DNA of 33,179 nucleotides from a virus. Its lineage: Duplodnaviria > Caudoviricetes. This document shows positions 543-33,179 of the stretch, piece after piece. Where the stretch lies: IMG/VR virus record IMGVR_UViG_3300011339_000873, positions 1 through 33,179 of that record. The stretch is one strand, 5' to 3'. The position numbers and the translations under genes were made by a program. The notes under the pieces were generated by a model. The model saw nothing but the letters and a program-made list of their open reading frames with translations. It had not been told where the DNA came from and did not search any database. Position 1 is the first letter of the stretch; every line of letters begins with the position of its first letter.

Positions 543-863
543 CTAAAATGGTAAATCTGAATCTTCAGCATCAACTGGAGTTGCTTTAGCCTCAGAAAGT
601 TTTTTGATTTTCCAACCTGATATTGTATTGAAATACTTATCAACTCCTTCATTATTAGTCCATTTACGGCCCCTTAAATTGATATCGATTTCTACTTCTT
701 GACCTACTGCAAAATCTTTTACCAATTCGCTTTTATTACCGCCGAATTCTACTAAAATTGACTGCGGATATTGTTCCGCTGTTTCAATTACTAATTCACT
801 CTTTTGAAATCTTTCATTTCCAACATTTTCATTTTTTACTGAAATTCTTCCTGTTACTTGCAT
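543..863 (-). CDS. DUF3127-family OB-fold single-stranded DNA-binding protein
   Basis: EQYPQSI..EF, GQEVEI.INLRGRKW and KYFNTISGWKI motifs; acidic SSB-type tail DSDLPF; next to ERF. Confidence 0.85.
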   Translation of the reverse strand: MQVTGRISVKNENVGNERFQKSELVIETAEQYPQSILVEFGGNKSELVKDFAVGQEVEIDINLRGRKWTNNEGVDKYFNTISGWKIKKLSEAKATPVDAEDSDLPF

Positions 864-882
864 TTGTTTATTTATTTAGTTA

Positions 883-1368
883 TTAATAATTCTTTTCTTG
901 TTCTGTTGTTACGCTGTATTTAGTCTTAATTTGAGCCATTGTCGCCCCTGTTGCCTTCGCTTTGGCTAATATTTCAGCTGTTGCCATTGGTTTGGATTGT
1001 ACTGCCTTTTGTGCATCATCATCCTCAGAACCGATTCCACAAATAGAACTTAATGAATATCTTCTGGCATAAGTTACTCCAGATCCATAGGCCTGTGCAT
1101 CATTTATGTTTTTACAGAATATTTCAGCCAAAGATTCGAACATTTCGCCTGATTCGTGCATTAAAACTGTTTTTACAAAGTTTTTACCGTCAATATTAAT
1201 CAAAGGTTGTAATAATACAATTCCATTATTGTTTAAAGCTGGTACAACTGCTTGTAAAACATCGTTTAAATCTGCGTATTTGTTTTTAAAGAATGGATTA
1301 ACGCTCCCCTTCTTTGGTGTAATCATTTCTAATTGCGCTTTTACTAATGCTTTGGCTAAATTTTCCAT
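883..1368 (-). CDS. erf: ERF-family ssDNA annealing recombinase
   Basis: NPFFKNKYADL, TVLMHESGE and QAYGSGVTYARRYSL...EDDD signatures. Confidence 0.9.
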   Translation of the reverse strand: MENLAKALVKAQLEMITPKKGSVNPFFKNKYADLNDVLQAVVPALNNNGIVLLQPLINIDGKNFVKTVLMHESGEMFESLAEIFCKNINDAQAYGSGVTYARRYSLSSICGIGSEDDDAQKAVQSKPMATAEILAKAKATGATMAQIKTKYSVTTEQEKNY

Positions 1369-1371
1369 AAT

Positions 1372-1818
1372 TTAAAATTTTATTGTTATACTTGATTTTC
1401 TTGGTGTAGTGCTTACCACTGGTACGTCATTACCGTACATGTCAATAACATTTTGTTTTTGCGCTAATTTTAGCAATTCCGCCCTTGCATCCAGATCAGC
1501 TTTTAATTGTTGGTAAATTGGATCATCTGAATAGTTCAAAGTATTTCCGCCATTGACTGGCGTAAATTCAACACCCATAACCGTTTGTTTTTCTTCATTG
1601 ATATGTTTACGTGCTTCAATCATTGCAGTGCTTATAACCTCATTTAAACGTGCTAAATTTGCAATAAATTCCATTTTGTCAACATTACCGTTATCCAGTA
1701 AATCAGTAACCAATTTAACACCTACTTTTTGCGCTTCTTTTTTTGTGAAATTTGAATCGTACATTGTTACGAAATCTTGCGCTCTTAATTCCAAAAATGT
1801 TTCTGAATTTGCTCCCAT
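1372..1818 (-). CDS. Hypothetical protein in recombination module (148 aa)
   Basis: Intact ORF tightly packed with its neighbours. Confidence 0.8.
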   Translation of the reverse strand: MGANSETFLELRAQDFVTMYDSNFTKKEAQKVGVKLVTDLLDNGNVDKMEFIANLARLNEVISTAMIEARKHINEEKQTVMGVEFTPVNGGNTLNYSDDPIYQQLKADLDARAELLKLAQKQNVIDMYGNDVPVVSTTPRKSSITIKF

Positions 1819-1819
1819 T

Positions 1820-2065
1820 TTATTTTACTTTATCAATTAAACTTAATACTCTGTTTTTCATTCCGTGATCACTTGCTTTCAATACTTGGTAAATTATATC
1901 CAATTCATTAATTATTTCAGCTTGTAAATTGGTAAATACTTCTGTATGGCCACTTTCATAGGCTTCTGTTAAATTGGCCCACAATGGTGATGTTTCTACT
2001 TCTATTCTGTTTATTGGTGAATTAGGATTAAACCTACCTTCCTTCCATGCTTCGTAACTGTTCAT
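1820..2065 (-). CDS. Hypothetical protein (81 aa)
   Basis: Intact ORF, tightly packed. Confidence 0.7.
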   Translation of the reverse strand: MNSYEAWKEGRFNPNSPINRIEVETSPLWANLTEAYESGHTEVFTNLQAEIINELDIIYQVLKASDHGMKNRVLSLIDKVK

Positions 2066-2150: not shown

Positions 2151-2254
2151 TAGTATCTGAATATGAAATTAAGAATAAAAATAATTGCTAAATAGTAAGC
2201 GAATTTAATCTGATAGTTTTTTTTTAGAAAGAAAGTTTTTATGATATTTTTCAT
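2150..2254 (-). CDS. Small membrane peptide (34 aa, MKNIIKTFFLKKNYQIKFAYYLAIIFILNFIFRY), not in ORF track
   Basis: Manual translation; hydrophobic C-terminal half; paralogous to 25242-25331. Confidence 0.65.
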   Translation of the reverse strand: MKNIIKTFFLKKNYQIKFAYYLAIIFILNFIFRY

Positions 2255-2387
2255 AAGTTGCTGGTTTTAATATAAATTTTGAATCTAATAATTTGTTTAA
2301 ATTTTGTTTTTGAATTCCAATTTTTTTGGAAAATTCCGCTTTGGTTAAGTTGCTTTTTTCAAATAGTTTAATTAGTTTATAGTTCAT
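2205..2387 (-). CDS. Cro/XRE-like helix-turn-helix regulator (60 aa)
   Basis: NLTKAEFSKKIGIQKQNLNKLL fits the XRE HTH pattern; basic; first gene after promoter P1. Confidence 0.75.
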   Translation of the reverse strand: MNYKLIKLFEKSNLTKAEFSKKIGIQKQNLNKLLDSKFILKPATYEKYHKNFLSKKKLSD

Positions 2388-2406
2388 AAATTATTTATTA
2401 AATTAG

Positions 2407-2453
2407 TAGTTAGGTTGAGAGTCGAACCCAATTAAGTACCACTACCCTAACTA
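2407..2453 (-). ncRNA. tRNA-like mini-element (acceptor-like stem plus T-arm, no anticodon arm)
   Basis: Minus strand: TAGTTAGG-GTAGTGGTACTTAA-TTGGG-TTCGACT-CTCAA-CCTAACTA. Confidence 0.6.
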
Positions 2454-2459
2454 TTTTTC

Positions 2460-2475
2460 CAGTATGTCAATGAAC
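2460..2475 (-). promoter_or_regulatory. boxA-like antitermination motif
   Basis: GTTCATTGACATACTG, 7 nt downstream of the -7 box; resembles rrn/nut boxA. Confidence 0.55.
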
Positions 2476-2482
2476 TATGATG

Positions 2483-2515
2483 CAAATATAATATAATATT
2501 TTAATATTACGCAAG
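2483..2515 (-). promoter_or_regulatory. Bacteroidota sigma70-type promoter P1 with operator at 2493-2510
   Basis: -7 box TATATTTG (2483-2490); TTG about 21 nt upstream. Confidence 0.8.
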
Positions 2516-2734
2516 TATTAAATCAGAAAATTTTTTATTTACTTCAAATATCTTTCCTAAAATACCTGAAAATACTATAATTTCTTCATCTGTAATTTTA
2601 AGTATTGACGCCTCAAATCTGTATTGACCATTTGCCAATTTACACATAAGTAACCCGTAATAATACTTATAAGTGAATGTAGAACCTAAATCCGTTTTAA
2701 ATTCTTTCTCGTCTAAAAAATCTTGCTTTGTCAT
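2507..2734 (-). CDS. Hypothetical early protein (75 aa)
   Basis: Intact ORF directly behind promoter P2; A-rich leader AAAACAAAACAAAATG. Confidence 0.75.
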   Translation of the reverse strand: MTKQDFLDEKEFKTDLGSTFTYKYYYGLLMCKLANGQYRFEASILKITDEEIIVFSGILGKIFEVNKKFSDLILA

Positions 2735-2765: not shown

Positions 2766-2796
2766 CAAATATAAAATAATATTTTAATATTACAAA
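2766..2796 (-). promoter_or_regulatory. Bacteroidota sigma70-type promoter P2 with operator at 2776-2793
   Basis: -33 TTTG (2793-2796), 19-nt spacer, -7 TATATTTG (2766-2773). Confidence 0.85.
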
Positions 2797-25626: not shown

Positions 25627-25656
25627 CAAATATAGTAATACTTTATTATTACGCAA
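25627..25656 (-). promoter_or_regulatory. Bacteroidota sigma70-type promoter P3 with operator at 25635-25652
   Basis: -7 TATATTTG (25627-25634), 19-nt spacer, TTG (25654-25656). Confidence 0.8.
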
Positions 25657-32836: not shown

Positions 32837-33017
32837 TTTCTTTTAACCAAAGATTAATTACTAATATACTTTTTTCTAAATCTGTTTGAAACTCTCCTTT
32901 TTTTTCTGCTCTTTCAAGTCTTTTGACAATGTCAAATAAATAAGGATTCCAGTTTCTTTCGGATGCTACTTTGTAAAGCGTTCCTTTGCTGTTATCATAA
33001 TGTTTTGGTGCTTCCAT
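32826..33017 (-). CDS. DUF3310-like protein
   Basis: PKHY...KRLERAEKKG...DLEK pattern. Confidence 0.6.
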   Translation of the reverse strand: MEAPKHYDNSKGTLYKVASERNWNPYLFDIVKRLERAEKKGEFQTDLEKSILVINLWLKENDK

Positions 33018-33139
33018 ATTTCAATGATTTGTTCGTTTGTAAAGTAATGACCGTGATATAAAAAACCATCCTGAACTTGTTCCAGTCTTGGTTCAATTCT
33101 TATAAATTCTACTAATTTGCAAATATCTTCTATTTTCAT
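32966..33139 (-). CDS. Hypothetical protein (57 aa, MKIEDICK...), spanning the circular junction
   Basis: Manual translation; the same ORF starts at 154 in the left repeat copy with ATGA coupling. Confidence 0.55.
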   Translation of the reverse strand: MKIEDICKLVEFIRIEPRLEQVQDGFLYHGHYFTNEQIIEIWKHQNIMITAKERFTK

Positions 33140-33179
33140 TTTAATATTTTTTTTACTAATCCTTCATTGCTTTTAGGTT
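32986..33179. repeat. Terminal direct repeat / circular assembly overlap (right copy)
   Basis: Offset of 32985 from the left copy; the repeat cuts through coding sequence. Confidence 0.95.

Follow-up and report, generated by a model that had tools for sequence, protein, structure and literature searches.

The window, meaning the whole stretch of 33,179 bases that was analysed, is the record of a small freshwater-type phage (94% complete) whose minus strand carries recognisable genes for terminase, capsid, portal, endolysin, primase, helicase, ERF and SSB. ARAGORN detected no tRNA genes in it, and no integrase was found among the 45 window proteins scanned in Pfam. TAnnTTTG promoters and a boxA match suggest a Flavobacterium-type host. 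The locus described here lies on the minus strand and contains, in this order, a promoter, a boxA-like motif, a 46-nt tRNA-like element (a 'tRNA shell', as explained below), a 19-nt trailer and the start codon of an HTH gene (2205..2387, minus strand), which encodes 60 aa and is the first gene behind the cassette. A sequence-only reading of the window had placed the element in the leader of a cro-like operon. While an HTH gene does lie behind the element, its protein gave only sub-threshold matches to PF13443 (E 5.6e-4, 20.5 bits against a cut-off of 22) and PF01381, and 'cro' is thus a loose label. The downstream early genes (543..2065, minus strand), comprising two unknown ORFs, an ERF ssDNA-annealing protein (883-1368) and DUF3127/SSB (543-863), are probably co-transcribed with the cassette. 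At the ends of the record the same ORF start occurs twice (1-154 and 32966-33179), so that the contig probably overlaps circularly though it is classed linear. A 30-nt near-perfect palindrome (2863-2892; 15-bp arms, zero loop gap) lies directly after a 53-aa ORF; it is matched by reads in many unrelated contigs and is missing or replaced in relatives, and may therefore be a mobile repeat.

Positions 2483..2510 (minus strand) form a promoter region of the Bacteroidota sigma-A type. It includes an operator-like stretch that is AT-rich and palindromic, and its -7 box, of the form TAnnTTTG, lies at 2490-2483. In PMC9723704 this box sits at -12 to -5, which predicts a transcription start at about 2478. 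A second promoter copy (2766..2793, minus strand), a 28-nt repeat 96% identical to 2483-2510, stands ahead of a 75-aa ORF (2734..2507, minus strand) and has neither the boxA-like motif nor a shell behind it. In this promoter pair the palindromic AT-rich stretch extends over the spacer, and a copy with two mismatches is found at 25651; the HTH protein may use the stretch as its operator. A sigma-70 promoter scan, which is not suited to this host, stayed at chance level.

The boxA-like motif (17 nt; 2460..2476, minus strand) was overlooked in the sequence-only reading, and the element comes as a cassette with it. It is the only copy in the window, lies between the predicted start site and the shell, and is 16/17 identical to a motif of the Flavobacterium 16S-23S spacer. 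The folded element begins 7 nt behind it, and the boxA-to-stem spacing is tight and conserved in all carriers. In seven of eight Flavobacterium loci the host motif follows the spacer tRNAs about 95-140 nt before the 23S rRNA (the eighth had no RNA match), which is the place given to boxA in rrn operons in PMC13753749. The same paper describes loading of NusB:S10 by boxA in E. coli and binding of NusB in B. subtilis. Of 61 genomes from the genus to which L419 belongs (titled Flavobacterium), 35 contained a degenerate version of the motif, at most nine times each, with 0 control matches. Candidate boxA-like 12-mers in four incomplete or distant genomes fell outside rRNA loci and were discarded; such a 12-mer, taken by itself, turns up frequently by chance across whole genomes. 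A literature search returned no paper testing boxA in Bacteroidota. In a local Rfam scan the DUF2693 RNA (RF02956) aligned to 2475-2460 at 18.5 bits, the gathering score being 81.3. The consensus of this model starts with a boxA-like stretch (window 2460-2475), so that the DUF2693 motif may also be boxA-led, while the rest of the model does not fit the locus. Tandem degenerate tRNA-like copies were seen in the 16S-23S spacers of Flavobacterium genome G035 (L436:1597-1831).

The element itself occupies 2453..2407 on the minus strand, and every feature named earlier is present there, namely the two stems, the 7-nt loop and the 14-nt linker with GG. The closing stem pairs 2453-2446 with 2414-2407 and had been read as 8 bp; a better parse is a 7-bp acceptor (2452-2446/2414-2408) with a discriminator A at 2407, which is also able to pair with T 2453. 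Position 1 of the acceptor-like 5' strand (2446..2452, minus strand), whose pairing is conserved in relatives, is then 2452, and an RNase P site is predicted between 2453 and 2452. The linker (2432..2445, minus strand) stands in place of the D, anticodon and variable arms, and with its 14 nt both the anticodon arm and the full cloverleaf are absent. Its GG lies at 2440-2439 (positions 13-14), and it could form a 3-bp mini D-hairpin whose three pairs are invariant across four short elements and so give no covariation. The T-arm (2415..2431, minus strand) consists of a 5-bp stem with one G-U (2431-2427/2419-2415) and a TTCGACT loop of 7 nt (2426-2420), and 100% of its stem cells are paired in relatives. 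The 3' side (2404..2414, minus strand) holds the acceptor 3' strand (2414-2408), A73 (2407) and C74 (2406), followed by TA, and an A/T-rich trailer (2388..2406, minus strand) forms the translation leader of the HTH gene, which measures 19-22 nt in all seven carriers examined.

A descriptor written after the element was seen (7-bp stem, linker of 6-20 nt with GG, 5-bp stem, TTCRANY loop) matched the window once and matched in 2 of 1000 dinucleotide shuffles. The element is real. In agreement with the earlier view that it belongs to no named family, a whole-window Rfam scan gave no match at its locus and no RF00005 match, and ARAGORN called 0 genes. The predicted minimum-energy fold retains the closing stem and loses the T-stem (z -1.69, equalled by 12 of 200 shuffles). 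For all four short elements compared below, the T-stem has a pairing probability of 0.00-0.09 in folding models, which in the window favour a rival hairpin by about 3-4 kcal/mol. This hairpin is likewise fully paired in the four short elements, and no two-sided change was counted for it. Every folding model predicts a stable closing stem. Since, under the same folding model, 7 of 20 real tRNAs from Flavobacterium also lack the T-stem, as against 11 of 137 long shells, the folding result weakens the acceptor/T reading without refuting it. A 12-bp coaxial acceptor/T helix with its T-loop can be drawn and is backed by comparison, and it differs from the predicted minimum-energy fold.

As the sequence-only reading had stated, no full CCA is encoded at the element, where ACTA follows. 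However, this is the norm for Flavobacterium tRNA genes: among the 27 distinct tRNA gene ends of genome G035 (30 fetched loci), C74 is found in 27 and CCA in one.

To recover relatives of the locus, a neighbouring gene was used as query and returned 21 loci, 17 of them with the HTH gene; the HTH protein search alone gave two loci, one a true relative and the other, L002, unrelated. Within 213 nt upstream of the HTH gene, the short form (mini) was present in L125, L126 and L139 and a 108-nt form in L127, whereas the remaining 13 relatives had none; five of these 13 have another gene directly upstream of the HTH gene. A short MAG contig (L423) carries an identical mini. On this comparison the cassette is accessory, as it is missing in 13 of the 17 relatives that share the HTH gene. 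Among these relatives the boxA-like motif and the shell are either jointly present (4 of 17) or jointly absent. Searched over whole records, the motif was detected in 4/4 carriers and 0/6 non-carriers, of which only two are at least 90% complete. Over its 17 places the host motif is mismatched once in the window, three to five times in the other carriers (five in L125) and six to eight times in the leaders of non-carriers.

The prediction of an anticodon-less acceptor/T-arm tRNA mimic is supported by conservation in the five orthologs (window, L125, L126, L139 and L127). In these, 59 of 60 stem cells pair and two-sided change is seen in six pairs, a combination reached by 0 of 500 shuffles. 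Five of the seven two-sided cells stem from the single long form L127, and the four minis alone show two two-sided changes with 74 of 500 shuffles doing as well, so that their covariation is not significant. Once the long form is counted, four of the five T-stem pairs show two-sided change. L126 has a mismatch at pair 1:72 and a two-sided change in the T-stem, L139 has a two-sided change at 1:72, and the T-loop and GG are intact in the orthologs. The sequence-only reading had further offered a switch acting on the early mRNA. In the window, pairing of the first 9 nt with the AUG region is possible. Access to the AUG improves on trimming there and, to a slight degree, in L139, and the five other carriers show no gain. 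Start-codon masking is therefore not conserved, and a translational switch finds no support.

The HTH gene of L127 is 88% identical in DNA, and the same slot in front of it is filled by the 108-nt shell, which indicates that long and short shell forms are interchangeable at one locus. As L127 falls among the minis in the HTH gene tree (modest support) and a mini also precedes the L139 HTH gene, which is only 61-64% alike, the cassette seems to have been swapped and moved. A scan for motif plus acceptor returned six stretches, comprising the four known carriers, one chance match and L496, a different 34-kb phage (99% complete) with one promoter-boxA-89-nt shell cassette before another gene. There the cassette heads an early recombination operon, the ERF likeness being judged by eye. 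A first loose pattern had returned 120 loci, mostly ordinary tRNA ends or chance matches, and was abandoned. The linker pattern matched 21 viral sequences, four of them mini elements, and 52 metagenome sequences, of which seven had both stems. BLAST searches of GenBank phages yielded nothing beyond short matches that were due to chance or to the T-arm. Three RNA runs contained 6-8% of the sampled words, as contigs only; in run X3 one contig spans 2331-2526 of a relative, such contigs showing no ends, strand or level.

Beyond this locus, the 3' half of the element and L127 matches about 1800 IMG/VR stretches by estimate, often several per contig. From 140 loci returned by the 3'-half search, a family sample of 165 matches (152 distinct) was obtained, and 155 family matches with a locatable 5' strand range from 53 to 190 nt. 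Members share the acceptor, a mostly Leu-type D-arm and the T-arm, and the middle is arbitrary. The family pattern was found in only 28 stretches of 185,579 species genomes, mostly short MAG contigs, which marks it as a phage family. Based on these comparisons, the element belongs, in minimal form, to a large family of phage 'tRNA shells' that have no anticodon. It shares with the family the acceptor AGTYAGG/CCTRACT followed by A73 and C74, as well as a 5-bp T-stem with a TTCGANT loop, in which the loop and the closing G-C are identical and the four outer pairs are replaced yet paired. The Leu-type D-arm and the variable insert are missing and reduced to 14 nt, as they are missing in other short members of 50-59 nt, and with 46 nt the window's element is among the shortest shells with both stems intact. 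The sequence-only reading of the element as a mimic is supported, but the element does not stand alone: it is the short form of a large family and swaps with a long form. Among 44 'short shell' matches, many were inner look-alikes within longer shells, and this linker was seen in the L125 contig alone.

What the family retains (acceptor, D-loop GG, T-arm, A73 and C74) are only the parts that tRNA-processing enzymes read. C74 is present in 39/39 distinct shell ends where the pattern left the position free, and position 75 varies. An ORF start lies at most 60 nt behind the shell in 80 of 189 cases compared with 16 of 93 for ordinary tRNAs of the same loci (Fisher p 3e-5, copies not being independent), and another tRNA is present in 57 of 184 shell loci. 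ARAGORN labelled shells 39 times, with 26 different anticodon labels, and many shells exceed the Rfam tRNA threshold; shells thus hide as odd tRNAs. Neither the family nor the cassette was found described in literature searches. Six supplementary files of the viral RNA candidate catalogue PMC10690425 gave no match, and the family may be listed unnamed elsewhere in that catalogue. Independent minis of 45-48 nt with the same GTA-loop-TAC linker and unrelated 6-bp acceptors were also encountered (L148:1490-1545, L166, L401/L367/L386/L393 and L357). The L148 mini ends in ACCA and the L166 mini in GCCA, and each is placed between a TATAAT/TATACT-type box, immediately upstream, and one and the same small gene. 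Another family of acceptor plus T-arm minihelices (7+6 bp, 9-nt linker) was seen at L014:590-640 and about 17 similar loci, and also at L107, L074 and L059; it is strongly folded and lies about 20 nt ahead of a gene start.

Comparison with known systems places the element near several of them. T5 RNA1 and RNA2 (NC_005859 misc_RNA T5s03 and T5s06), annotated as 'tRNA-like stable RNA with unknown functions', are likewise phage-encoded tRNA frames in which a normal anticodon arm is missing. In RNA2 the T-arm sequence is identical to that of many long shells and a full CCA is lacking, and RNA1 has a Leu-type D-arm. However, the T5 RNAs measure 125-144 nt, lie within a tRNA array and have other acceptor sequences, whereas the element is a single 46-nt copy in an mRNA leader of a phage without tRNA genes. 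Plant mitochondrial t-elements and mascRNA/menRNA (PMC4919922) also embed a non-decoding tRNA-like fold with acceptor and T-arm in a longer transcript. The element may work like a t-element, although those RNAs are eukaryotic or organellar with cleavage shown, and the element lies in a boxA-coupled phage 5' leader, where cleavage is a prediction. Like the tRNA-like domain of tmRNA, it combines acceptor and T-arm with a short GG-bearing D region and lacks an anticodon arm. It differs in having U3-A70 instead of G3-U70 and an AGTT instead of a GGGG start, with no tag ORF and no pseudoknots. An exact tmRNA register for the GG was not borne out by three Flavobacterium tmRNAs, in which it lies at 11-12 or 12-13 compared with 13-14 in the element. 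The P1 C4 and P4 CI antisense RNAs and the Y RNA YrlA are small RNAs associated with phages and either are cut by RNase P or mimic tRNAs. Unlike these, as their features are generally described, the element has no Rfam match, no room for antisense loops and no Ro60 stem, and its D and T regions follow in tRNA order and are not permuted. By the tests run, the element is not a tRNA, tmRNA, C4, YrlA or DUF2693 RNA, the last three having Rfam scores below the gathering threshold. The boxA/boxB antitermination site nut of phage lambda is a further comparison for a boxA-led leader. The motif resembles rrn boxA (PMC13753749) in matching the Flavobacterium spacer boxA position and in being placed at the transcript start, but it heads a protein-coding phage operon and is followed by a tRNA shell, not by boxB or rRNA.

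Comparison across carriers shows that the shell stems are conserved, that the middle is dispensable and that the cassette is gained and lost as a unit. Our preferred explanation, which we consider about as likely as not, is that the element and the boxA-like motif form a mobile leader cassette, one that would make the host treat the early transcript like an operon for stable RNA. BoxA would serve for the loading of Nus factors, NusB/S10 binding the motif as at rrn boxA and guarding the untranslated leader and the operon against Rho. RNase P would cut the 7+5 bp acceptor/T helix at 2453/2452, and the host tRNA 3' pathway would cut after A73/C74, the conservation of which points to tRNA processing, and add CCA. 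An RNA of roughly 49 nt would be released, and the HTH-ERF-SSB message would be left with a short new 5' leader of 19 nt; the benefit could be either the trimmed message or the released RNA. The U(-1)-A73 pair and the missing CCA could weaken RNase P cleavage. According to PMC4919922, RNase P processes phage RNAs, t-elements and mascRNA and accepts acceptor/T hairpins, with more miscleavage. A long-range processing stalk behind boxA was also considered and rejected, as no clean complement exists in the minus-strand transcript.

Several other explanations have to be weighed against this proposal. If the released small RNA itself matters, it would act in trans as a stable tRNA-shaped decoy or uncharged-tRNA mimic, and the HTH-gene slot would merely supply a strong early promoter. 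The multiple copies of shells, often among tRNA genes, the T5 annotation of comparable RNAs as stable, the role of boxA in stable-RNA transcripts and the movement of the cassette between different downstream genes are all in line with such an RNA. We nevertheless regard it as unlikely, in view of the enrichment of shells directly before ORF starts, the single copy per small genome, the deletable middle and the lack of an identified target or partner protein. The occupation of the same slot by 89-nt and 108-nt shells with unrelated middles is difficult to reconcile with an uncut lambda-nut-like antitermination site, at which boxA and the folded element would bind a factor, of host or phage origin, that sits on RNA polymerase during elongation. 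Most shells also have no boxA directly ahead (12 distinct motifs in 184 loci, 12/12 on the shell strand and 0 opposite, some of them related), the A73/C74 conservation indicates tRNA processing, a terminator scan gave one weak minus-strand candidate downstream (779-764), and no N-like protein was identified. Even though the tight boxA-to-stem spacing, the stability of the closing stem in every model and the location at the start of an operon for early recombination, in L496 too, would suit a nut-like site, this reading is more doubtful still.

It is slightly less probable again that the shell is a slowly decaying passenger of promoter-boxA-shell blocks that recombine at their constant ends, with boxA or nothing at all being useful. 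Patchy presence (4 of 17 relatives), G-C pairs that have drifted to A-U and G-U with respect to the family consensus, the L126 mismatch and the swap of long and short forms inside one clade could all be read as decay. Against this stand the fully paired T-stem of the five orthologs, the two-sided changes in the L126 T-stem and at 1:72 of L139, the intact T-loop and GG, and the persistence of the mini before HTH genes of only 61-64% likeness. An attP/attR remnant or decayed host tRNA was the case named earlier as refuting the element, and it is very improbable. T-arm and acceptor 3' strand do form the usual att core, and in a Hymenobacter isolate a tRNA-Arg(CCT)-like gene (L416:1450-1525) ends in a shell-type 3' half that mismatches its own acceptor, with no integrase-like ORF obvious nearby by eye. 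However, the 3' half has no match with fewer than three mismatches in the five Flavobacterium genomes tested and is confined to the few species-genome stretches mentioned above, and on these grounds the att reading fails. In addition, both acceptor strands are present and covary, and the nearly complete record encodes no integrase among the proteins scanned.

New here are the minimal single-copy cassette and its long/short swap. Extending the leader-cassette proposal to small Bacteroidota phages in general is speculative but possible: a portable 'stable-RNA leader' of promoter, host rrn boxA and tRNA shell would make an early protein-coding operon Nus-protected and tRNA-punctuated, and the 46-nt form would be a minimal elbow found in nature, marking the irreducible core of the family and showing the inserts to be cargo that a processing scaffold carries. 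No job is known for the thousands of tRNA look-alikes in phages that combine a fixed frame with a free middle. Near-identical genes with a long or a minimal form in one slot, together with relatives that have neither, provide a natural test of whether the frame, as a processing signal, or the insert, as cargo, matters. If the proposal is true, it would give the first boxA test in Bacteroidota among the papers found, and a phage without any tRNA gene would be applying the host's rRNA antitermination and its tRNA maturation to a protein-coding operon.
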